From NCBI GenBank assembly GCA_033763315.1, contig JANRKS010000035.1, positions 1 through 64,000 on the forward strand: a DNA stretch of 64,000 nt. The letters are read 5' to 3'. The stretch comes from Deltaproteobacteria bacterium. Its GTDB lineage: Bacteria > Myxococcota_A > Polyangia > Fen-1088. Position numbers and translations under genes: made by a program. Within the stretch, counting starts at the first letter, position 1. Every line of letters starts with the position of its first letter. This document shows, in pieces, positions 8,309 through 31,492 of this stretch. The notes beneath the pieces are model-generated. The model saw only the letters and a program-made list of their open reading frames with translations, ran no database searches and was not told the origin of the DNA.

Positions 8309-9085
8309 ATGGGTACCCGTCTTTTCGTTGGGAACCTCTCTTACAACGTAACGGAGCAGGAGCTGCGAGACGCCTTCGTCAATGAAGGCATCGCGTTGCG
8401 AAGCATTCGTGTGTCGCTTGATCGGGAAACTGGTCGGCCACGCGGCTTTGCATTCGTCGAAGCAGCGACTGAAGACGACGCAAAGAAGGCTCGGGAAACA
8501 CTTTCCGGACGCTTGCTGCAAGGCCGCGCCATCATTGTCGAGGAAGCGCAAGAGCGCGCCGCTGGAGGTCCCCGTCCGGGTGGCCCCGGGGGCGGCCCAG
8601 GCGGTCCCCGGCCCGGTGGCTACGGTGGCGGCGCTCCGGGTGGCGGCTATGGCAGCGGTCCTCGCCCCGGCGGCTATGGCGGCGGTCCTCCAGGCGGAGG
8701 GGGCGGTTATGGCGGCGGTGGCGGTGGTGGTGGCTATGGGGGCGGCGGTGGTTACCGAGGCCCAGCAGGCGGCCCTGGACCTGGTCCTGGCGGTGGCGGT
8801 GGTTACGGTGGTCCTCCGGGCGGCCCGCCTGGCGGTTACCGTGGCCCTCCCCGTGGGCCGGCACCCGATCCCAATTACAGGCGCGATCCGTTTTCTGGCG
8901 GAGGCGCCGATCCCGGAGGGGCACCTCCTCCCGGTCCCGACGGTCCTCGCGGCCCTGGGTTCTTGTCTCGCGATGACGACGACAAGAAGAAAGCGTCGAA
9001 GAAGGATCCCAAAAAGCAGTCCACGCGCCCGAAGGAAAAGGAACGCGGGAACTGGCGTTGGAATGGCATGGTCGACGAGGACTAG
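8309..9085 (+). CDS. RRM RNA-binding protein with long Gly/Pro/Tyr/Arg-rich tail
   Basis: RNP2 LFVGNL and RNP1 RGFAFV. GGYGG and GPRPGG repeats. Confidence 0.92.
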   Translation: MGTRLFVGNLSYNVTEQELRDAFVNEGIALRSIRVSLDRETGRPRGFAFVEAATEDDAKKARETLSGRLLQGRAIIVEEAQERAAGGPRPGGPGGGPGGPRPGGYGGGAPGGGYGSGPRPGGYGGGPPGGGGGYGGGGGGGGYGGGGGYRGPAGGPGPGPGGGGGYGGPPGGPPGGYRGPPRGPAPDPNYRRDPFSGGGADPGGAPPPGPDGPRGPGFLSRDDDDKKKASKKDPKKQSTRPKEKERGNWRWNGMVDED

Positions 9086-11571: not shown

Positions 11572-13743
11572 TCAGGGCAAGGGCGCTGCCTTTGCCAACG
11601 TCGCACGAAGTTCAAGCGCGGTGGTCACGGGCAACTCACAGCGCCCTTGTTCGCATACGTAGGCGGTGGCTTGGCCGTTGATGCACGCTTTGCCCGTGGC
11701 AAAAGGCACAACGGCCGCCAACGCCGCAAGCTCCGGCCCCTCTTCCGCGAAGACGAAAGCGCGGTTGGGCAAAAACATGCGGCGGCACTCGTTGAGCATC
11801 TCTTGTGCAGCGGCCCGTTTCCCTGCCGGCCACACCACCAGCACCTCGCGTGGCGTATCCAAGCGATAATCGAGCGCCACGAGTGCCTCGGTCATGGCGG
11901 GGCCACTTGATTCCAGCGTGTCTTGCAGCTCTTCAAAGGCCGCATCCGCCACCCTGCGCCACGTGTCGTCGCCTGTGAATGTGCTTAAGCGAAGAGCATT
12001 CAAAAGCGCGACAGATGTGCCTGAAGGTTCAGCGCCGTCGTAGCGAGGCCGCTCGCGCGCAAGCAGCGCTTCACCGTCGTGTGCCGTGGCGAACCAGCCC
12101 CCACGCTGTTGGTCGCCGAACAGGGTTTGCGTGGCGTTCGCCACTTGCAACGCAGCCTGCAACCAGCGTGGCTCTTGCGACGCCTCGAATAGATCCAAGA
12201 GGCCCGCCGTTACGAAAGATTGGTCCTCCAAGAAACCTTGGGGTTGATGCCGACCATCCTTGTAACTGCGAACGATGCGTTCGTTCTGCCAAAGGTTCGA
12301 CAGCAAAAACGATGCGGCCCGCGAGGCCGCCTCAACGTAGCGCGGTTCATCAAACACGCGGCCGGCCACGGCGAAAGCCGAAAGCATCAAGCCATTCCAC
12401 GCCGCCAAGACCTTCTCGTCGCGCAACGGTGGCACACGCCGCTGCCTGATTTCATAAAGCTTTGCGCGCGCGGGTGCCAAAGCCGCCCACGTGTCTTCGT
12501 TGGGGAACGGCACCGACAAAATATTGTGGCCTTCAAAGTTGCCCGCCGCGGTCACACCATAGTGGGCGCAGAAGGCCGCCGCATCGGCACCAAGCGCGGC
12601 CTCGATTTCGCTCAAGCTCCATACGAAGAAGCGACCTTCTTCGCCCTCGGAATCAGCGTCCGTGGCCGAATAGAAGCCGCCTTCGGGCGCCGTCATCTCG
12701 CGCAATACGTAATCAAGAACTTCGCGGGCCACACGTTCGAAATCTCGTCGCTTGGTTTGCGCGAAGGCCTCAACGTAAGAGACCACCAACAGCGCGTTGT
12801 CGTAAAGCATCTTCTCGAAGTGCGGCACGAGCCATACACCATCGGTGGAATAGCGATGAAAGCCGCCGCCCAATTGATCATAGATGCCCCCTGCGGCCAT
12901 CTTCTCAAGCGTCAACGTCGCCATCTTCAAGAACCGTTCGTCGCGCGTGCGTCGGTGGTAGCGCAACAACAAACGTACGGGCAGGTTTGACGGAAATTTC
13001 GGCACCCGACGCAAACCACCATGCTCGGGATCAAATGCGCGGCGAACGTAATCGACGGTGTTTGTGATGGCCTTGGCGCTGGGCAGCTTGCCCCGTTTGG
13101 CGGGGCTTTGGCCCTCCATGCTTTGCTTGACGGCCTCCACCAACGCCACCGCCGCCTCGTTCACATGTGCAGGCTCGTTCACAAAGGTATCGGCGATGTC
13201 GCGCAACATAGACAGAAAGCCTCGTTGCACGCCGCGCACGCCATCGCGCGGCGGAAAGTATGTCCCGGCGTAGAACGGCTCGCGGGCCGGTGTCAACCAC
13301 ACGCTCATGGGCCACCCACCACCACCCTTGAGCCGTTGCAGGGCGCTCATGTAAACCGCGTCAACGTCGGGGCGTTCTTCGCGATCCACTTTGATGCAGA
13401 CATAGTGCTCGTTTAGAAAAGCGGCGATCTCCCCGTCCTCGAATGACTCTTCCTCCATCACGTGGCACCAGTGGCACGTGGCGTAGCCAACCGACAAAAA
13501 CACAGGACGCCCCAACCGCTTGGCTTCGTCGAACGCTTCGGCCCCCCAGGGATACCAATTCACGGGGTTGTGCGCGTGCTGCAGCAAATAGGGACTGGTC
13601 TCGTGGATCAGGCGGTTGGTGTAAAGCGGCCGACCGTTTTCAACATGCTTCGTGCGCGGCACGTAATCAGGCCCTTTGGCCGCAAGCGCCGCCGCCAGGT
13701 TGCTCACCACTGCATCCCTGCCTACCGAAATCGTCGTGCCCAT
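11572..13743 (-). CDS. YyaL/DUF255 thioredoxin-domain protein (SPATA20-like)
   Basis: [44 protein letters not shown]. Start moved to ATG 13743. Confidence 0.93.
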
Positions 13744-13792
13744 GGAGAGGCAGCATAGCAACGCGGCTCTGCACTCAATTTCGCAAAATGCT

Positions 13793-14500
13793 ATGCAAGT
13801 CACAATGACTGGCACCTTGCCACCCGCCCCGGCGCGCGTTTTGGATCTTGGCCGCATGGCGTATGCCGAAGCGTGGGAGATTCAGAAAACGCTGCTTTTG
13901 CAGCGACAAAACGACGAGATCGTCGACACGCTCGTTCTTGTTGAACATCCCGAGGTGGTGACGTTGGGCCGCGGCTCGCACGCCGAGAACGTGCTGGACG
14001 TGGCAGGCATACCAGTGTTCGAGGTCGAGCGAGGCGGCGACGTCACGTACCACGGCCCCGGCCAATTGGTGGGCTACCTCATCTTCAAGTTGCGTGAAGG
14101 GGAGCGCGACTTGCATCGCTATTTGCGGAACATGGAAGAAGCGCTGATCCTCGGGTGCGCACAGCTAGGCTTGGTGGCCGGGCGCAATCCGGGATGGACG
14201 GGCGTGTGGACGGAGTCAGAGCCCCGTCGCAAATTGGTTTCCATGGGCGTAGCGTGCCGCAAGTGGGTGACCTTTCACGGCTTCGCTCTGAACGTCAGCA
14301 CAGATCTGTCCCGCTTTGCGGTGATCAATCCCTGTGGCCTTGAGGCTCAAGTGATGGGCTCGCTGTCATCGGTGTTGGGGCGCGATGTGAACTTGCAAGA
14401 GGTCAAGGCGTTCGTGATCGAAGGCGTTGCGGCAGCGCTCGGCCGGTACATCGACTCCAACTTGGCTCAAACGCCGCCAAACACGAGCCGTGAAACGTAA
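13793..14500 (+). CDS. lipB: Lipoyl(octanoyl) transferase
   Basis: [36 protein letters not shown]. Start is ATG 13793 or 13805. Confidence 0.93.
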
Positions 14501-14976
14501 ACCGCTCTGAGACTTTGCCCGGGGACCTCTCGGCGCAAGCGCGCGAGCAGCCGTGTTTTCGTTTTCTCCAATTGCCGGCTGCCGCGCAGTTGTTCCGGAC
14601 CTAATTTTGAAAGCACCTCAATGGTGGCGTCATGAATGCGAAGAAGCTGCGCTTTGACAGCCTCTTTGTCGTCTTCGACGGACACTTCCAGATCAAAACT
14701 GGCCTCCACGTATAGATCTTCATGACCCTGTAAGCGCACAAGTGTGTCTGGCAGACGGACCACTGGGCCCACGGGCAGGCCGTCATCACCCGAGCGGTTG
14801 GCCTGCGCGAGGCCTAAGTGACTCTTAAGCCAGCGTAAGGCAGGCGCCCAGCCGCCCTTTTTCTCCTGACGCATGAGGAACCCTGTGCAGAGCAACAAGT
14901 TAAGCAGCAGGACAACGCCGAACAAACCACCCCTGGAATTCGGAGCGTGCGTCGTTTTACGTTTCGGATTGGCCAT
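14467..14976 (-). CDS. FliL-like single-TM protein
   Basis: N-terminal TM. C-terminal VRL...YVEASFDLE...IHDATIEVLS...L.G...K..L......VYVSRLV pattern typical of FliL. Confidence 0.65.
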   Translation of the reverse strand: MANPKRKTTHAPNSRGGLFGVVLLLNLLLCTGFLMRQEKKGGWAPALRWLKSHLGLAQANRSGDDGLPVGPVVRLPDTLVRLQGHEDLYVEASFDLEVSVEDDKEAVKAQLLRIHDATIEVLSKLGPEQLRGSRQLEKTKTRLLARLRREVPGQSLRAVYVSRLVFGGV

Positions 14977-15214: not shown

Positions 15215-18200
15215 TTGAGCCGAAAGACACCTTCTATAGCGATGCTCTTGGTGTGCGTGCTGGCAAGTTGGCCTGCACATGTTGTCGAGGCCCGGGTGTC
15301 ACCGCTGACCTTGATCACCCGCCAGATCCAAAAGCCCAACATGCTGATCGTGCTCGATACGTCGGGCTCGATGAATGGTGTGCCTGGCGCCGCATTCACC
15401 TATGCAAGTGAAGTGGGCGTTGATTGCGATAATGGTGTCAATTGCCGCGGGTGGACCGCGACGGCGGGTTCATGCAGCGCCAGCGGTCGGTCATGCGAGA
15501 CCAACGCCGATTGCCAGACGCGATACTGCAAAGTGGGTAAAGGAACATGCACATCCGATGTGGATTGCCCCACACAGGGAACGTGCAGCAAGGGCAAATA
15601 CGTTTGTAAGTCCGATGCCGATTGTGCGCCCTATGAAGAAGGCGCGTGCTCAGCCTCTGGCACCCGCTGCAACTCAACAACCAGTTGCACCCCACGCGGC
15701 AACTGCGCCGAGACCGCCGAAGGTTGCTCTAACCCGGGCAAGGCCTGCAAATCGGGGTGGTGCCAACACACCAGCAAATCCAAAGTCTACTGTCAGTCCG
15801 ACAAGGATTGCGGGGCGTCCGGCAAAGGCAACTGCGCGTACGGCGATACCCCAAAAGGCGGTTGTACGTTGGATTCAGAGTGCCCCACCGTCAAGTCTTG
15901 CTCCACGGGAGAGACGTGCACCGTTAACTCCAACTGCCCCAAGATCACGGTGGGTACTTGCAAGTATTCGAAGGCGACCTGCACCACGACGGCAGATTGC
16001 AAAGCGGGGGACGTGGCCAACGACAGCTACGTTGACACATGCCAGATCCCAACGAACACGTGTTCCGGCAACACGAACTACTGCGAGGTGGATTACAACA
16101 AGTGCATCTACTCCGCGGGCAACACCTGCACGGAGGTTACAAACACATGCAAACCGAACTCGAACGTTTGCAACATCCCGGTGATCAACGCCTGCCTGCC
16201 TCCTGACACCGGTGACGTGTGCGTGAAGGGAACGCCCGCTTCAGCGTTGAAGATGTGCCAGATAGCGCAATCGCTGTGCAGCACCAATGCCGACTGCCCC
16301 GCCGGTGACGTGTGCGGCAATCCAACGTCACGAACGGTTGTGGCGAAGCGAACGTTGTCCAAGGTCATTGAGCAAAATTACAACGTGCTTAACCTGGGCC
16401 TCACCACGTTTTACCAATCAGGTTATTACCCCTATTACTCGGTCTCGAATCCCGTGCCCGTAACGGAGACAATCTATCTCACGGCGTTTCAAATGGGATC
16501 TTGCTACTCCGCCGTCACGGGCCCCAAATCGGTCTGCAACTACAACGGCAACGATTACAACCTGGCTTCAGGCGCCAACTCGCAGTACCTCGTGGGCGAC
16601 AAAAAGAAGACAACCACCGTTGACGCCGCTTGGTGCGGCGATCTTTGTTCCATTCCAAACGTGGGAACGGGAAATTACCAAGGCAGTCGGTATACCCGCA
16701 CGACCACGTCTGGCACGGCCACCACAACCAAAAAGACATTTGCCACCTACGGTGGCAAAAGCATGGTGTCGGGCGGCCTCCCTTACACATATTTCACGCC
16801 GCTTCCGAATTACTACAACGGTGGGGCGGCACCGCCCATCGCCGCGCCCGATTGCAGCAGCAATCAGTGCTCCGCCAAGTGTGGTGCCCGTTGGGACAGC
16901 GGCCTCTCGACGTTTATCGATCCCAACGCCACCGACACCGATTCGGCCTTGGCCGCCAACAAGATGTTGTCGTGGATGGAGAAGGCAGCCAATGGTGGCA
17001 TCCTGACCTACGGCGGGACGCCGTCGGGCTGCACGTTGGAAAACAACGTCACAGCCGCGAAGGAAAGCAGCGTCTACCATTACATGAAGACGCTCAAGCA
17101 AAGCGACAGCATCGCTTGCCGCCAGAACTTCGTGTTATTCATCACCGACGGTGAAGCCAACGGCCCTGGCGACACTGAGTGCACCAAAGCGGCTTGCTCA
17201 GCGGCCGATCCTGAAGCGGCGGGCTGCACCTGCAAGGTCGTGTTGGCGGCGTGGCACTTGCGCAAAGATCTCGACGTTCGCACATTCGTGATTGGTTTTT
17301 CATCCGACGTAGCGGTGGGCGCTGCACGAGTGATCAATGACAACGTGGCGAAGGCGGGTGGCACTGACCAAGGCAACGACGCCAAGGAGCCGTACGCATT
17401 CGTGGCCACCAATGAGGCGGACCTGCTCAGTTCGATACAAAACGCGATTTATGACGCTGTTGCGGGTAGCTATTCAACGGCGCCGGCCACCGCATCATCG
17501 GGCACGCAACTATCGGGAAGCGTCAAATCAGGAAAGTATGCACTTGATTCTCGCGTTGACTTCCCTTCGTGGGAAGGACACCTCTTGGCCTACGACATCA
17601 CAAAGGCGCAGCCGACGTTGGTTTGGGATGCAAATGCTGAACTCAAAAAGATGGACTGGCACGCACGCAAGCTGTACGTGGGCACCAAAGACGGCAACGT
17701 GGTAAAGGTGAGCATCGACAGCAAAACCGGCAGCGTGCTCAACAAGGACACGCTAAGCGCTTTAGGCCTTGGGTCGGACGGCGCAGAGGCCGAGCAAATC
17801 ATCCAGTTCACTCTCTCAGCTCCCGGAGCGGGAAACCCTGCGGTTCTGGGCGCGCTGATCAACTCAACGCCCATAGATGTTGGTCAGCCGGGAGACAGCC
17901 CCCTGCCCGGGGGTCATGCGTTCTTCTTGAACAACAAGACCCGACCGAACTTGATCTACGTCGGCTCAAGTGACGGGATGTTGCACGCCTTCTTTGCCGA
18001 CGACACGAAAGTCAACGGCACCATCTATCCCGCAGGCTCGGAAGCATTTGCCTTTATGCCGTACAGCATGTTCCCCGCCGTGACGAAAATCTTCGTGCAG
18101 AAGGGGCAACAGGCGAACCCAACGAAGCACGTGTTCGGCCTGGCCAATTCACCCAAGGTGAAAAACCTTTGTGTGCAAAACTGCGGAAACGCCGACCAGG

Positions 18201-19357
18201 CGGTGTGGAAGACTCTGCTCGTTATGAACGAGGGGTTCGGTGGGGAGCACATGTTCGTCCTCGATATCACCAATCCACTCGGCGACTCTGGATTCACAGA
18301 ACCTCCCTTGATGCCCGTGTGGCACTCAAGCGATCTCAACCTTGCTTCTTCGTACGCGGCCTCCGTTGGTTTAACCACGTCCGTGCCTGCGTTCTACTTC
18401 AGCAAGAGCGATGCGATGAATGATTTCAGGCTGGTGTTCGGTTCTGGATACAAAATCAACCCGCAATCGACGACGCAGGATCGCCGTATCGTTTCCGCCA
18501 GCGCCTCGACGGGGCAGATACTCAATGTGCAAACCGTGGCACCTGGGCCCGCCTGCACACAGGAGTTTGGCATGATCGCGGACGTGGCCACCGCCAAGGA
18601 CTATTCCAAAGGAGAGGGCGGAAAGTTAAGGGCGGCCTATGTTGGAGACACCTGGGGGACGCTGTGGCGATATGACGGCTCTACGACAACGAAGGTCGCG
18701 GGCTGGGGCTGCTCACATCCGCTGCATTTTGCGCCCACCGTCGTGCAATTGGACCGCGATGATCCCAGCAACAACGCGGGCGTTTCCTATCTGGTGCAGG
18801 TCACAAATTCGGCGCTCGACAACGACACCATCAACTTCCCGGCTTCGAAAATGATCATCCGTCGAGAGGCCAAAGACCAGGCGGGGGCGGCCACCGCCGA
18901 CACGTCGTTTGGTTCGGGTGGCGAGATTGCGCTCACCGTGGGAACAAGCGAACTTTGTGCCGTCACCGACGGCAAAACAGGATGCAAGGGTTTACTACCG
19001 GCGCACGCGCGGCCGATGGCCACGCCGTTGGCCATCTTAAAGAAGGATGGCAGCGGATTTATCGTGCTTTCAACTTGGTATGCCCAAGAAATGCTCGGGT
19101 GTGGCAAAGGCGCAACCTGGCTGGCCATACACGAGATCAAGGGCGATACGGTCTCCCAGTTGCAAGGCCTCAAGGTTGCCGACGAGCCAGTCACCAGCCC
19201 GGTCGTTTCGGGTGGACGCATTCTGGTGGTTGGCACCAACGGAACCGTCGACATTGCGGCAAACATTGAGGCCACCGTCTCGGCGGGAACCTCCACGCCC
19301 ACCCAGGGCGTGGGATCCGGTATCTATCGCCAGCTTGGATGGACCGAGCTGCCCTAG
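15215..19357 (+). CDS. pilY1: PilY1/PilC-like type IV pilus tip adhesin (signal peptide, split vWA with Cys-rich inserts, beta-propeller)
   Basis: GGAG RBS before the TTG, signal peptide. MIDAS elements DTSGS, GGTP and FITDG. PilC-propeller motifs [40 protein letters not shown]. Confidence 0.85.
15473..16315 (+). repeat. Cys-repeat array inside PilY1: nine 3-Cys modules, nine single-Cys segments, one complete 4-Cys module
   Basis: Counted directly from the translation (see findings). Confidence 0.9.
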
Positions 19358-20499
19358 TCACGCATGAAGTGGCATGTATAACCGCCAGGGTTCTTCTCTA
19401 AATAATCCTGGTGGTAATCCTCGGCGTCGGTAAATTCACGCTCGGGCACGATCTCTGTGACCACGGGACGCTTCCATTTGCCGCTGGCGTCCACACGTGC
19501 TTTGACTTCTTCAGCCACGCGCTTCTGTTCGTCTGACGTATAGAAAATCGCCGAACGGTACTGCGTGCCGATGTCGTTGCCTTGGCGGTTGGGCGTTGTG
19601 GGATCGTGCATGCGGAAGAACCAATGCTCAAGCAGATCCGCGTAGCTCAGCTTCTTTGGATCAAACACAACCTTCACCGATTCGGCATGCCCCGTGCGGC
19701 CCGTTTTTACGTCCGTGTATTTGGGCGACTTAAGATCGCCGCCCGTATAACCCACGCGCGTCTGCACCACGCCAGGAATCTTGCGCAGCAGATCTTCCAT
19801 GCCCCAAAAGCACCCGCCCGCCAACACAGCGATCTCGAGCGTCGCCTCACAGCCAGCGGCGCCGTCGCCCACGGCGCACGCGTTGTTGGTGTTCACAAGC
19901 TCGGCGCTCTTGCCACCCGCAAACAGGTTTGCGTATTCGCCGTAACCTTCCGCCTGCAGCTTTGCCACGGGGATAAAACGCAGCGACGCGGAGTTGATGC
20001 AATAGCGTTGGCCGGTGGGTGCAGGGCCATCGTCAAACACGTGGCCCAAATGTGATCCCCCCGCTGCCGAACGCACCTCCACGCGGCGCATGCCGTAGCT
20101 GCTATCGACTTTTTCAACCACGCGGCCCGGCTCCACGGGCCTCACGAAGCTCGGCCAGCCTGTGCCGGATTCGAATTTGTCGGTCGAAGCAAACAAGGGC
20201 TCGCCCGATGCCACGTCAACGTAAAGACCCGCTTCGTGGTTGTCCCAAAACTCGTTGCGAAAGGGCGGTTCAGTGGCGTCCTCTTGCGTGACCTTGAACT
20301 GCAAAGGCGTCAACTTCGCCTTCAGCTCTGACACGGGAGGTTTTACGAATTTGCGTTCTGACATGGTCTTCCACTCCCTATTCAAATTGGTGGGCGGCGC
20401 CTTGGCTGTGGCGGTTCGCTTTGCCGCACACGCTCCGCCAACCGGTAAGATGACGATCAACAGCAACCCGATCCAACTTCGCAGACTTATCCGCAGCAT
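19354..20499 (-). CDS. msrAB: Bifunctional peptide methionine sulfoxide reductase MsrB-MsrA
   Basis: MsrB motifs GWPSF, HLGHVF, RYCINS followed by MsrA motifs GGCFWG, GYTGG, QYRS, AEDYHQ.Y. Confidence 0.95.
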
Positions 20500-27018: not shown

Positions 27019-27318
27019 TCAGTTGACGTCTTTGGGCCGGAAATCCGACCAGACGTCATATTCATCGGCGTACATATCCGCGGCGCGCTCAAAAAAATCG
27101 ATCTCAACCGGGGTGAACACCGTCTCTAGTTCAGGCGGCGGAGGAACCTTCGAGGCTTTTCGCTTGCGCGTGTGCGCTCGGTGCGGCTCTGGCGCTTCGT
27201 CTTCATCCACGCTGCGCAGCGCCCTTGCGCTTGGACGATGAGCCGCCGGCTCTGGTTTGGCGGTGGTGCCGCCGCGCTTGGCTGGCGACGGCGTTTTTGT
27301 TTTCTTCTTCGCGCTCAA
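27019..27318 (-). CDS. Small hypothetical protein, basic N-terminus and acidic/aromatic C-terminus
   Basis: 3' part of ORF 27019..27777. Probable TTG start at 27318 (MSAKKKTK...). Ends FTPVEIDFFERAADMYADEYDVWSDF. Confidence 0.5.
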   Translation of the reverse strand: MSAKKKTKTPSPAKRGGTTAKPEPAAHRPSARALRSVDEDEAPEPHRAHTRKRKASKVPPPPELETVFTPVEIDFFERAADMYADEYDVWSDFRPKDVN

Positions 27319-27553
27319 GACGTTTGTTCGCAGACGACGTTGGCCAGGTAGTCTGGCAGATGAGTCCGCCAGGGCCAACCCACCTTTGCGGGTGCCCCCG
27401 GGGCCGCGACGGGTGGCCTGGGGTAACCGCCCTCGGCACCTACACACACGCCATTGCAGCCGAATGAGCAATGGCACCGAAGCGGCACAAATTGCGCATG
27501 CCGCCGTCGTTTTTTCCTGTGCGAACAGGCGGGGCCGGATATTCTCGCACGCG

Positions 27554-30500
27554 ATGATTCTGTCAGGAGTGGTAGCGACGGGCCCATTTCGGGGTGCCCT
27601 CCCCTTCGATGAGTCAGGCAGCAGCGTGTTCTTTGGTCGCCAAAGCGAGCTTGAAAGTCTGTACTCACAAGTAACGCAAGAAGGCGTGAGGGTTTCAGCG
27701 CTCACCGGCCCCTCGGGCGTCGGCAAGACGTCGCTGTTGCGCGCCGGGCTGCACCCCATCCTCGCCTCTGAAGGCATGTTGGGGATTTATGTGGGCGACT
27801 ATGAAAACCTCGACCAGGAGGTGACCCAGGCCGCCAGCCGCAGCCGCGCGCAGCCGCCGGGGCAAGGCGAACTCATGTCCGACTACGTGGCTCGCCTCGC
27901 GCACGCGGCCCCCGGTGGCGCGGTGTTGATGTTGGACCACCTTGAAACCGTTGTGTCTGACGCCGCGCCAGCGGGCTCGCGCGAAAAACTGTCAACGTTC
28001 TTGGCGGGCGTGTTGTCGGCGGGCGGCACCAAGTTGCGTCTGCTGTTCTCGGTGGACTCTGACGCTTACCACCTGCTGGGGCGTCTGTTGCCGCGCAGTG
28101 TATTGGCAGCTACGGGCTCTACGTTCGAGCTGCGTAACTTCGACGAAGATCAAGCCGCCGCTGTGATCGAACAAACGGCGTTGCAAACCGGCACGTTCAT
28201 CGAAGCGGGTTTGGCCAGTCGTATCTCCACCGATTTGTGCCGCAAAGGCCGCTGCTTTCCACTGGATTTGCAGATGGTGGCACGCACCATGATGGATCTG
28301 CGCCTCACCTCAATCCGCCGCTATGAACGCAGCGGTGGCGCGACGATGCTCTCGCAAACGTTTTTCGACCGCGTCGTGGCCGAGGCGGGCGGCCGCACCG
28401 GCCTACGCGTGTTGTTGGACGTGATTGGCCACGGCCTATCAACGATCGATGAGATCGCCACGCGCAACCATCTTGCCAAAGCCGAGGTGGAGCGCGCCGT
28501 TTCCACGTTTGTGGGCCGTGGTGTGTTCGGCAAACGCGAAGGTGAACGCGCCGATCGGTTTGCGTTCTTGCATCCAGCCTTGGCGGAACGTGCCGCGGCC
28601 TATTGCGCGCTTGACCGCGCGAAAGTGGATCGCATCCGAAGGCGGCTTCGCCAGCGCGTGCTGGCCGGCCAACGCTTGACGGTTCCCGAATTGGTTTCGG
28701 TGTGGCGTCATTTGGGGCGCGCGCTGTCGGTCGAAGAGCAAAACACATGCAAACGCAGCATTCGGCGCAAGGTCTTCAACGTTAGCCTCACCGGCTTGGT
28801 GCTGGTCGCCTTGGTGGTGGTGCTGTTCATTGAACTGAGATCGTCATACTCACTTGATTTTGAGCCTAAGGAGTCGCTGGGACAAGCGCGCGTGGTGGTG
28901 CGCATGGGCCGCCCAGGGCGACCATTGGTATCGATGCTGCCTCACGATCCGCCGTTCGGTTCGATCGTGGCCGACACGGGTTTCGCGCGCGCGGGCCTAG
29001 CCGAAGATCTACGTGAACGCATCGATCAGGGCCACGTCACGGGCAAACTTGATCGCGCCAAAGGCCACACCGTGCCTGGTTGGTTGCAAACGGTCTTAAG
29101 CGGCCTGCGCCCTGTGCAGCGTGGCAGCGCGGCTTTGCTGTTGGGCGAGCCCACAGGCATCAAGGCATTGCAACAAGCATTCGCCGATCCGGTGGCGCGG
29201 CGAGAAACTCTGGATGTGCTCGAAGTTGTGGGCCAAGGCGGTGCGGGCGAGGAAGAATTGCTGGCAGCCGCTTTGTCAGACACAACCCCTGAGCTGCGCC
29301 GTCGCGGCGTTGAAGTGGCTGCGGCCATCGACCGCCGCCTCGGCAACGGCGCGCACGCGGCCACTTTGCGTGCAGCGCTTTCTGATCCTGATCCGTTGGT
29401 GCGCAATGCGGTGCTAGGAGCGTGTGCGGTGCTGCCGCCGTCTGAAGCGTCTGATGTTCTGCGCGTGGCTCTAACACACGCCGAACCTGGCATGCGCCAT
29501 CAAGCCGAAGACACTGTGCTTGATTTGGCGGTGAAGGCCCCCAAAGAGGCGGCGATGGCGGCGGCTTCGGTGGCGCAATCCACAGACGCACCCACGCGTC
29601 GCAATGGCCTTGAGCTGCTTGAGAAGGTGGCCACCAATTCCCCGAAAGGCACCGACGAAGTGCTGCGACAGTTGGTGAGCGATGCCGCGGCCCCGGAAGA
29701 CACCCGGGTGGTGGCGTTGCGGCTCTTGCGACTGGGTGGCGCTTCGCCTGAAGGCCTACGCGACATCGTGGCACACGCGATTGCCAGCGACGAATCGCCG
29801 CGGTTGCGGGCGGCGGCCCTACCGATTTACGCACGCACGATCGAACCTGAAGCCGCCGAAGAGCTGGCTCACAACGAGAACAAGGGAACAGTGCAATCTC
29901 GCGCGGCCGCCACAGCGATCTGGGCCGCGTTGGTGCAAAGCCGACCCGAAGCCGCCAGTAAAGCATTAAAGGCCGCGCTGTTTGATCCGGCGCCTGAAGT
30001 GCGGGCCGAGGCCGCGCGTGCGTTGGGTGCCCTGCGCCGCGACGCGATCACCGTGCTGCCGCGCACGCTGCTGGATCCGAACGTCGAAGTTCTCCGTGGG
30101 GGGCTTGAAGCCTCCGTCGTGATGGCCACATCCAACTTTTATGCGGTCGTGGAAGCGTTAACCAAAGGGCTGCGCGTGGTGCGGCCTGGGTGGCGCAGTG
30201 ACATCGTGCAAACATTGGGGAAGGTTGGTGAAAAACGGGCCAATTCAGTTTTGCCACCACTGATGCGCGTGTTCAAGGAAGGCCCCGCTGACGCCAAACG
30301 CACAGTGGCCCGCACGCTGTGCAACTTGTCTCGCTTTGAACCGCAGGTTGTATCGCCCTATCTTCGCAGCGTCGCGCGTGACACAGACGCTTCCGTGCGC
30401 TCCGCCGCAGCCAATTGCCTAGACGTGTTGGCCGCCAGCGACCCGAAGGGCGCCGCACGTTTGGCACGCGAGTTGGCTCAAGCAGAAGATGCCACCGTGC

Positions 30501-31492
30501 GGCTAGCCGCAACGCAAACGCTGGGCAAGCTCGCGCCACAGGCCCCCGAACTCGCGCTGTCGGGGCTCTTAGAGCTGGTCCGTAGCCCTGAAGCAAGCAC
30601 GCGCCAAGCCGCGCTCGCGGCGTTGACCACCGCTGGCAAAGCGGGCGTGAAAGTCGATAAACCGGATGAAGCGATCAAGACTTTGGAGCCGCTGCTGGCC
30701 AAAGGTGATCAGGTCGAGCGGCGGCAAGTGGTGTTGGCCGCGTCGGCCTTGCAGCTGGCGCCATTGGTTCGTCTGGCAGCGCTCGACCGCGACGATGCCG
30801 TGCGCATCGAAGCCTTGCGCGGGGCCGCGGCGTTGGTGCCGCCCGCGATCGATTTGTTGCGCGCCGCCGCCGACAACGGCCCGCCGCAGCTGAAGACCGA
30901 AGCGATGACGCTGTTGATCCACACCGGTGGTGAAGCGGCCGCTCAGGTGTTGCCGATCTTCGAGGGCATGGTGCGGGCTGGCGATCTGGAACTGCGCCGC
31001 ACAGCTGCGCTCGGGTTGGGTGAGCTTGTGGGCGCTGAAACCGAAGCTGTTCAGGTGCTGGGGCAATTGATGAACAGCCGCAGTGAGACGATCCGCCGCA
31101 GCGTCGCCGAGGCTCTATCGGCCGTGGCGGGCCGCCAAGCCACGTTGGCCCGGCCGTTGTTGGAACAAGCGTTGACAGATCCCGCTCACGACGTGCGCGA
31201 AGCGGCGAGCCGCGGCCTAGCGGTGGCGTGGGCCAACGATCAAAAGCCGAACGACTTGGCGGCGGTGTTGATCAGCTCCGAAGCTGACAGCCGACGCCGC
31301 TTCGTTGCGCTTGAAGCGCTCGTGCGAAAAGCAAAGAACGCCCAGGCGCGGCCTGAAGTGGATAAGGCGCTTGAAGCCGTCGCGCAAACCGGACCGCCCT
31401 TGGCCCGCTTGGCGGCGCAAGTGGGTAAGGCCTTCATCGATAGGCCCGCAAGTGAGTTGCGCGCTTTCTTAGATCGCCTCCTGGGAACATAA
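27554..31492 (+). CDS. nSTAND1-like P-loop NTPase, TM segment and long HEAT-repeat region
   Basis: PFRG..PF...FFGR, Walker A GPSGVGKTS, Walker B-like LMLDHLE, TM at about 28772-28837, many D....VR..AA..L repeats. Start moved to ATG 27554. Confidence 0.85.
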   Translation: MILSGVVATGPFRGALPFDESGSSVFFGRQSELESLYSQVTQEGVRVSALTGPSGVGKTSLLRAGLHPILASEGMLGIYVGDYENLDQEVTQAASRSRAQPPGQGELMSDYVARLAHAAPGGAVLMLDHLETVVSDAAPAGSREKLSTFLAGVLSAGGTKLRLLFSVDSDAYHLLGRLLPRSVLAATGSTFELRNFDEDQAAAVIEQTALQTGTFIEAGLASRISTDLCRKGRCFPLDLQMVARTMMDLRLTSIRRYERSGGATMLSQTFFDRVVAEAGGRTGLRVLLDVIGHGLSTIDEIATRNHLAKAEVERAVSTFVGRGVFGKREGERADRFAFLHPALAERAAAYCALDRAKVDRIRRRLRQRVLAGQRLTVPELVSVWRHLGRALSVEEQNTCKRSIRRKVFNVSLTGLVLVALVVVLFIELRSSYSLDFEPKESLGQARVVVRMGRPGRPLVSMLPHDPPFGSIVADTGFARAGLAEDLRERIDQGHVTGKLDRAKGHTVPGWLQTVLSGLRPVQRGSAALLLGEPTGIKALQQAFADPVARRETLDVLEVVGQGGAGEEELLAAALSDTTPELRRRGVEVAAAIDRRLGNGAHAATLRAALSDPDPLVRNAVLGACAVLPPSEASDVLRVALTHAEPGMRHQAEDTVLDLAVKAPKEAAMAAASVAQSTDAPTRRNGLELLEKVATNSPKGTDEVLRQLVSDAAAPEDTRVVALRLLRLGGASPEGLRDIVAHAIASDESPRLRAAALPIYARTIEPEAAEELAHNENKGTVQSRAAATAIWAALVQSRPEAASKALKAALFDPAPEVRAEAARALGALRRDAITVLPRTLLDPNVEVLRGGLEASVVMATSNFYAVVEALTKGLRVVRPGWRSDIVQTLGKVGEKRANSVLPPLMRVFKEGPADAKRTVARTLCNLSRFEPQVVSPYLRSVARDTDASVRSAAANCLDVLAASDPKGAARLARELAQAEDATVRLAATQTLGKLAPQAPELALSGLLELVRSPEASTRQAALAALTTAGKAGVKVDKPDEAIKTLEPLLAKGDQVERRQVVLAASALQLAPLVRLAALDRDDAVRIEALRGAAALVPPAIDLLRAAADNGPPQLKTEAMTLLIHTGGEAAAQVLPIFEGMVRAGDLELRRTAALGLGELVGAETEAVQVLGQLMNSRSETIRRSVAEALSAVAGRQATLARPLLEQALTDPAHDVREAASRGLAVAWANDQKPNDLAAVLISSEADSRRRFVALEALVRKAKNAQARPEVDKALEAVAQTGPPLARLAAQVGKAFIDRPASELRAFLDRLLGT

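Follow-up and report, generated by a model that had tools for sequence, protein, structure and literature searches.

A Cys-rich insertion in the predicted vWA domain of a PilY1-type protein, read as a two-limbed stalk of nested four-Cys modules

The stretch of DNA analysed here, called the window in what follows, comprises 64,000 nucleotides (nt) of the genome assembly of a deltaproteobacterium (GenBank GCA_033763315.1, contig JANRKS010000035.1, positions 1 to 64,000 of the forward strand; GTDB lineage Myxococcota_A, Polyangia, Fen-1088). It contains a gene of the pilY1 family, and our subject is a long Cys-rich region in its product, inserted into a predicted von Willebrand factor A (vWA) domain directly after the DxSxS motif of its MIDAS (metal ion-dependent adhesion site). 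The arithmetic of this region suggests a stalk made of two antiparallel limbs, in which modules with three Cys on the way out would be completed, in reverse order, by single Cys on the way back. The features of the gene, together with two paralogues located outside the window, are listed in Table 1. A database protein of 1371 amino acids (aa), P0002, is 100% identical to the translation and starts at an ATG nine codons downstream of the TTG that opens the reading frame considered here.

Table 1. Features of the pilY1-family gene in the window, and its two paralogues in the same genome
Feature	Position (nt; aa)	Strand	Basis and remarks
pilY1-family gene	15215..19357	+	Open reading frame and translation; 1380 aa, TTG start
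Probable Sec signal peptide	15215..15295; aa 1-27	+	By eye: basic start, hydrophobic run, VVEA before RV
MIDAS DxSxS motif (DTSGS)	15356..15370; aa 48-52	+	End of vWA strand beta1 (model strand E15-20 = aa 42-47)
Invariant lead Cys pair C71, C77	15425..15445	+	Columns C44/C50 in alignment A1, C12/C18 in alignment A2
Predicted outbound limb, nine 3-Cys modules m1-m9	15473..16000; aa 87-262	+	Cys map; m1 aa 87-100, m9 aa 249-262
Predicted tip loop	16001..16039; aa 263-275	+	13 residues; lowest model confidence of the stalk; position of the LamG head in paralogues
Predicted return limb, nine single Cys s9-s1	16040..16222; aa 276-336	+	Cys map; mostly N-x-C motif; covariation with opposite module
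Free-standing 4-Cys module, C-x6-C-x5-C-x5-C	16256..16315; aa 348-367	+	Predicted stalk base; Cys map
vWA helix alpha1, re-entry of the Cys-rich insertion into the vWA core	16331..16375	+	Model helix H346-361 = aa 373-388
Candidate MIDAS Thr loop (GGTPSGC) and Asp after beta4 (FITDGE)	17012..17155; aa 600-606 and aa 642-647	+	
PilY1 beta-propeller match	17846..18679; aa 878-1155	+	Pfam PF05567, 33.8 bits against a cut-off of 28.1; same place in genome search
PilY1 paralogue, 2349 aa	Contig C35, ~91.6-98.6 kb (L005 596..7645)	-	Outside the window
PilY1 paralogue, 2343 aa	Contig C34 (L006 562..7593)	-	Outside the window

The Cys map of the 1380-aa protein gives an exact pattern of 9 x 3 + 9 x 1 + 4: nine modules with three Cys each, nine single Cys (at aa 276, 283, 290, 297, 305, 312, 319, 327 and 336, with 6-8 residues in between) and one complete module with four. 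All these elements, and the MIDAS motif, had been listed in a first-pass annotation made from the letters of the DNA, and each item of that list was recovered, the strings of the nine modules being identical; the invariant pair C71/C77, ahead of the modules, is an addition to that list. There are 40 Cys in the 291 residues between aa 86 and 376, against 20 in the last 980 residues and 63 in the whole protein, and in an alignment of 57 relatives the Cys columns show little or no variation. Because of this contrast in density and this conservation, the pattern is far beyond chance. The region is also rich in Thr, Ser and Gly, and an N or a D precedes the return Cys by two positions in 299 of the 360 instances of the training set described below; the fourth Cys of the free-standing module has a D at the same place.

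At the DNA level no tandem repeat runs across the Cys-rich region, the sole repeat found there being a match of 26 nt (16209-16234 versus 16302-16327, 81% identity, with the first 15 nt identical). It encodes the GDVC ending that the last return segment shares with the free-standing module, a likeness that had been spotted in the protein and that extends, through those 15 nt, to the DNA. Since DNA-level repeats are absent save for this match, the modules are, by this measure, old and not recent duplications.

The position of the region within the protein was examined with structure models. An AlphaFold2 model of aa 28-760, built from 71 aligned relatives, reached a mean predicted local distance difference test score (pLDDT) of 89.9 and a predicted template modelling score of 0.78, with values below 50 at the very start of the construct; a second model, of the stalk alone and from 57 relatives, gave a mean pLDDT of 85.1. 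In the larger model strand beta1 (aa 42-47) leads directly into the MIDAS motif, which is invariant or nearly so among relatives; after the Cys-rich region, which comes next, the chain forms a long helix (aa 373-388) and from there on alternates between strands and helices, as vWA domains do. The insertion accordingly spans aa 53-372 in the model, in the beta1-alpha1 loop on the ligand-binding face, and the helix by which the chain re-enters the core carries a conserved SR..[IV]AKR motif. Since the insertion starts and finishes in one and the same vWA loop, the base is where both of its ends have to come together, and this favours an out-and-back shape. Further along, construct residues T575, T617, D618 and G619 are invariant or nearly so, with a model strand at E611-617; from the general vWA consensus, we take the Thr loop and the Asp after beta4 as candidates for the remaining MIDAS positions.

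The assignment of the vWA fold itself is tentative. None of the Pfam VWA models matched the protein at E up to 1. A Foldseek search with the model returned many solved vWA domains (CMG2, integrin I, factor B, TRAP and LapA), if weakly, with probabilities of at most 0.85, target TM-scores of 0.3-0.46 and E-values of 0.05-0.4, and among the NCBIfam families there was a weak match to NF033757 (CglB) at aa 572-718. The same domain holds a second big insertion, beta-rich, at about 16400-16900 (aa 400-570). It separates alpha1/beta2 from the MIDAS Thr loop; its strands are long (construct E379-396 and E457-481), and it contains pairs of Cys that are conserved.

Within the stalk, the blocks have pLDDT values of 71-95 across both models, the tip loop being the lowest (71-76 and 72). 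Each module is modelled with a strand at its first Cys, a strand at its second and a short helical turn before its third, and most return Cys lie in or beside a short strand or bridge in both models. The free-standing module shows strand, strand, helical turn and strand, which is the pattern of a module plus its return Cys. The loop that had been placed at the tip in the first-pass annotation is hence the least confident part of both models, and it is also the point at which additional domains are found inserted in other proteins, as described further on.

If the two limbs were paired in this way, the number of modules and the number of partner Cys should go together in other proteins. Relatives were collected with aa 40-420 as query, by a word-indexed search that gave 74 proteins and by an exhaustive search of 1.84 billion cluster representatives that gave 55 clusters at E up to 0.001; nearly all full-length matches were PilY1 proteins. 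The simplest of them, those with one module, have a plain contiguous 4-Cys module. In those with two, an outer 3-Cys module is followed by a complete inner 4-Cys module and then by one Cys, and the pattern goes on likewise in longer ones. The free-standing module was present in all parsed relatives, with spacings of 6, 5 and 5-15 residues. For the parse, position tables were trained on 42 nine-module proteins, the window protein included, and a Viterbi procedure with an 'extra' state was run on the 90 proteins that had both anchors; left out were P0057, two N-terminal fragments (P0015 and P0027) and two proteins with anchor errors (P0084 and P0118). The labels separating single from extra Cys were unreliable near the tip and inside inserted heads, so a cruder count was used, namely all Cys between the lead pair and the free-standing module minus four per module.

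By this count, 59 of the 79 head-less proteins gave a remainder of 0 and 16 a remainder of 2; the other four were P0011 and P0035, which are parse errors, P0072 and P0091. Restricting the count to the 37 test proteins left 19 with a remainder of 0, having 1, 2, 3, 4 or 8 modules, 16 with a remainder of 2 (one extra pair) and two with other values. The coupling of both counts, which had been offered as a check on the architecture, is borne out in relatives with 1, 2, 3, 4, 8, 9 and 12 parsed modules, as well as in the six proteins with heads described below. P0057, which failed the anchor pattern and lies outside the parse table, has 56 Cys (14 x 4) and would have 14 rungs by count. The rule that Cys totals should be multiples of four was considered by itself and found not to be decisive, totals of 4, 8, 12, 16, 32, 36 and 56 being met along with 10, 14, 38 and 50.

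The relatives also bear on how such a region could change length. The eight-module protein P0049 is without one module at m4/m5 and without one return Cys in the s5-s3 stretch, a mirrored loss, the exact missing unit of which cannot be fixed in a repetitive alignment. It agrees with the proposal that length changes by paired events at distant sites; as an exclusive rule that proposal was too strong, for a contiguous insertion at the tip, such as the heads with LamG domains, also works. Likewise, the statement that each module had been inserted into the previous one stands as a description of topology, and as an account of history it goes beyond the data. The gap at the tip measures 5 residues, the spacing of a complete module, in 26 of the 42 nine-module proteins; in the window protein it is 13 residues long.

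Other arrangements were seen among the relatives. In two PilY1 proteins, P0058 (1569 aa) and P0077 (1556 aa), it is the outbound limb, behind its first module, and not the tip that accommodates an inserted domain, of about 250-300 aa and without Pfam match. In P0124 (914 aa) the limbs appear to be reversed: some 15-17 single Cys at 7-residue spacing come first, followed by a small Cys knot and about 15 three-Cys modules; this match is weak (E = 5.5e-4) and its Cys counts are approximate. No Pfam match was obtained on P0124, P0085 or P0101.

A different view of the tip comes from the two further PilY1 genes in this genome, whose products measure 2349 and 2343 aa. Both products align to the window protein over aa 9-203, where the basal modules lie, over aa 301-402, where the basal return Cys lie, and over its C-terminal two thirds. 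In between, each has six modules, about 890 aa with four Laminin_G_3 (ConA-like lectin) stretches, six single Cys and the free-standing module; in the 2343-aa paralogue, moreover, the first module contains one additional pair of Cys, and the Cys total is odd (59). P0078, P0081, P0082 and P0083 carry ConA-like lectin heads at the same tip position, and the heads of the six proteins span 249-1141 aa. Six Cys follow the head in all six cases, and 18 precede it in five and 20 in one. Judged from these alignments, the head is inserted exactly at the predicted tip, with the basal modules and the basal return Cys retained.

Which module faces which return segment was addressed by covariation, using mutual information with average-product correction. 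Of the 71 aligned rows, the calculation took in the 57 in which 34 or more of the 36 stalk Cys are present, corresponding to an effective number of about 50. Scores were summed in blocks, module against return segment, and all 362,880 possible assignments were ranked. The nested assignment, in which module i is opposite segment 10-i, occupied rank 16, 28, 89 or 439 depending on the block statistic; after double-centring, which removes row and column effects, its rank was 28 of 362,880, and without the two rungs nearest the tip it was 18 of 5,040. The parallel assignment, in contrast, ranked between about 97,000 and 187,000, no better than random. Ten of the strongest 30 limb-to-limb pairs fall on the anti-diagonal, versus 3.2 expected, and block scores average 0.035 along the anti-diagonal (i+j=10) as compared with 0.000 and 0.005 along the adjoining diagonals. 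The predicted order of partners, module n with return Cys 10-n, is well supported by these ranks, and the out-and-back reading as a whole draws support from the counts, the heads at the tip, the register and the model alike.

These results together point to the following architecture. About 250 aa of the insertion (aa 87-336) would form a two-limbed stalk, whose outbound limb would consist of the nine 3-Cys modules, a module being made up of a small beta-hairpin and a helical turn. Beyond the tip loop, a thin return limb would run antiparallel to it, bringing one Cys every 7-9 residues, and return Cys 10-n would complete the 4-Cys set of module n. The stalk would then amount to nine nested 4-Cys modules with some 18 predicted disulfides, with a tenth, free module and the Cys pair at its base. 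Cross-linked at each rung, it could act as a rigid spacer proof against the force of pilus retraction; it would project from the ligand-binding face of the vWA domain and could carry binding domains at its tip, which would be a bare loop of 13 residues in the window protein and four or more ConA-like lectin domains in the two paralogues. We consider it quite probable that the gene encodes a secreted PilY1-type tip adhesin whose vWA domain bears such a two-limbed stalk of nested 4-Cys modules. In this proposal we infer the oxidation of the Cys residues, which Cys of the module bonds the return Cys, and the rigidity, length and adhesive role of the stalk.

A number of observations weigh against this interpretation. 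The disulfides are predicted because the protein is presumably exported, with a signal peptide recognized by eye, because of the 3+1 arithmetic and because of the models, and AlphaFold2 does not take redox state into account. Covariation reflects contact or co-evolution and not bonding, and the rows used are related to each other. With strict labelling, the number of modules equalled that of labelled singles in 27 of 48 test parses, so that the automated labelling is imperfect; the misses were heads, extra Cys pairs inside a loop, and partner Cys just upstream of the module. The six proteins with heads, all of them six-rung, probably belong to one orthologous group and are hence not six independent tests. 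DsbC_N, the single family searched for in this respect, was not found in the genome (90.85% complete), so that an isomerase, possibly needed for non-consecutive bonds, was not identified. Finally, none of the three PilY1 genes adjoins pilin genes, the nine matches to N_methyl (PF07963) lying on contigs C1, C6 and C19 and none on C35 or C34; with the gene unlinked to pilins, its role at a pilus tip is inferred from family membership only. Myxococcota pilY1 genes have been described both linked and unlinked to minor-pilin clusters, the unlinked ones being common according to the main text of a recent survey (PMC13190605), and the missing linkage does not therefore exclude membership in the family.

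Other explanations of the region have to be set against these data. The one closest to our proposal keeps the hairpin stalk and changes its bonding: the return Cys might be one rung off or might bridge neighbouring modules, or the limbs might be held in part by a ladder of hydrogen-bonded Asn while the Cys pair within each limb. We regard this as unlikely, even if covariation supports contacts and not bonds, the maxima of several rungs (m2, m4 and m7) in the double-centred block matrix lie one or two steps away from the anti-diagonal, and parity permits internal pairing of a limb whenever the number of modules is even. A shifted register is hard to reconcile with the mean score of the anti-diagonal relative to that of its neighbours, and internal pairing with the relatives that have one or three modules and hence odd numbers of Cys on each limb; moreover, the equality between modules and partner Cys would be left unexplained.

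A more radical departure would be a string of independent, locally bonded modules with the run of single Cys pairing with itself, and no out-and-back stalk at all. Among extracellular proteins, Cys-rich repeats usually follow one another in tandem and are bonded locally. At the base of the present stalk there is indeed a complete 4-Cys module in tandem, and in P0065 and P0063 local units are complete because the partner Cys lies immediately upstream of the module. Such a string is nevertheless very improbable here: the 3-Cys module is not self-contained and nine single Cys cannot all pair among themselves, the two counts keep step in proteins with between 1 and 12 parsed modules, even where a head as long as 1141 aa lies between the limbs, covariation ties module i to segment 10-i, and an insertion in a domain loop has to reunite its two ends. 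Least probable of all would be that the Cys bind metal, in a metallothionein-like or cluster-binding manner, or that the region is a flexible linker of low complexity. It is true that Cys, Thr, Ser and Gly abound in the region and that neither Pfam nor the PDB yielded a relative of it, but the apparent signal peptide and an exported adhesin family, regular secondary structure with pLDDT of 85-95, and a strict 3+1 arithmetic that would be unexpected for metal sites all argue against this. For CglB, a related myxobacterial vWA adhesin, disulfides are supported by a change of mobility under a reducing agent (PMC9946355).

Comparison with known systems did not reveal a counterpart. The stalk had no Pfam match; its best hit in a PDB sequence search was a low-density lipoprotein (LDL) receptor class A module with E = 0.25, which is not significant; Foldseek gave three matches to the stalk model, all with E of at least 4, and no analogue; the ESM Atlas yielded no usable neighbour. 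Our literature searches found no description of a multi-rung module-ladder stalk or of a LamG-bearing PilY1. Rod-like Cys-rich repeats are well represented by LDL-receptor class A, EGF/laminin-type and TNFR-type modules and by the beta-helix of beetle antifreeze proteins. The eukaryotic repeats resemble the stalk in the small size of their modules, in a distance of about six residues between Cys and in turns rich in Asp, but they are self-contained and sequential, and none is known to borrow a Cys from a return strand. An identity with LDL-receptor class A modules was discarded, given the single PDB match mentioned above, the lack of a Pfam match, and three Cys per module versus the six, with an acidic calcium cage, of that family.

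The topology of two antiparallel limbs tied by nested cross-bonds is found in theta-defensins and glycocins, small hairpin peptides with nested or ladder disulfides that form 2-3 rungs between simple strands or helices. The stalk would differ from them in having 9 rungs (1-14 in relatives), in that one limb is made of folded 3-Cys modules, and in being a domain insertion that can bear heads of 250-1100 aa. On the side of function, the pilus tip adhesins of Gram-positive bacteria, such as RrgA, have vWA domains with inserted arms that flank the MIDAS, the arms being ordinary beta-structures without a Cys ladder. They share with the window protein the combination of a vWA domain at a pilus tip with extensions beside the metal site, and differ from it in lacking such a ladder. 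The Foldseek search also gave weak fold matches to the vWA pilins PilB of S. sanguinis and PitA of S. oralis (E-values 0.05-0.4).

Closer relatives are to be found among the Myxococcota. The 2026 survey of their PilY1 proteins describes Cys-rich clades (1.3 and 1.5-1.7), with median Cys counts of up to 41 and AlphaFold models with 5-20 predicted disulfides (PMC13190605). As far as its main text goes, the Cys-rich vWA-type proteins have the same N-terminal vWA domain and C-terminal beta-propeller as the window protein; Cys content is treated there as a character of clades, and the 63 Cys of the window protein compare with those medians of up to 41. The words hairpin, stalk, insertion, elongated, protru- and lectin are absent from that main text, and its figures and supplements may show such models. 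CglB, the adhesin of myxobacterial gliding, is likewise a vWA adhesin with a MIDAS and many Cys, for which disulfides at loop necks have been proposed, supported by the shift with reducing agent (PMC9946355); it matches the vWA core of the window protein weakly and differs from it in having 17 Cys in 416 aa without a repeated module ladder. That the window protein might be a CglB was rejected on the basis of 29.7 bits against a family cut-off of 200. The stalk, in sum, appears to be a new kind of insertion in a known family, that of PilY1 proteins with a vWA domain.

With regard to its distribution, 20 of the 24 other genomes examined from the same family had the stalk-bearing N-terminus, against none of 16 from other families of the class, and the three PilY1-family genes of this genome all carry it. 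Flanking genes in the window are located at 11572-13857 (-), 14467-14976 (-) and 19354-20499 (-), with a FliL-like gene divergently upstream of pilY1 and a gene of the lipoate-ligase type (lipB-like) also in the neighbourhood. Two flanking genes are redox-related, one encoding a thioredoxin-like protein of the DUF255/DsbH type (761 aa) and the other a fused MsrB-MsrA with an N-terminal hydrophobic leader, which may be a coincidence. Elsewhere in the window, a 258-aa open reading frame at 8309-9085 (+) starts with some 80 residues that look like an RNA-recognition motif by eye and continues in a long tail rich in Gly, Pro and Tyr, and a protein of 1411 aa, encoded at 27257-31492 (+), has an nSTAND1 NTPase domain followed by HEAT repeats.

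The most likely role of the proposed stalk is that of a rigid, force-resistant spacer of tunable length and a display scaffold on a tip adhesin. A broader reading, to which we give about even chances, is that it represents an undescribed architecture: an extensible, recursively nested cystine-ladder stalk of 1 to about 14 rungs, tuned by evolution as a plug-in mast for heads at the ligand face. What is carried on the mast would range from a bare loop up to five or so lectin domains, and a reversed version such as that suggested by P0124, a protein without PilY1 match, would turn the stalk from a peculiarity of PilY1 into a general building principle.

PilY1, the tip adhesin of type IV pili, has also been proposed as a force sensor; structurally, least is understood of its N-terminal half. 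For an adhesin under retraction load, a stalk with cross-linked rungs would be well suited, since pulling on its tip cannot unzip it as long as the bonds are intact. Strictly nested disulfides in such number and over such long range would also be a rarity, the partners being separated by as many as some 250 residues here and some 1000 in the paralogues, which raises the question of an ordered formation in the periplasm. The family, with its 1 to about 14 rungs and its bare to lectin-bearing tips, constitutes a natural series of lengths and heads in which the contribution of reach and mechanics to adhesion could be tested, and the nested stalk suggests a compact, rigid scaffold for the display of domains.

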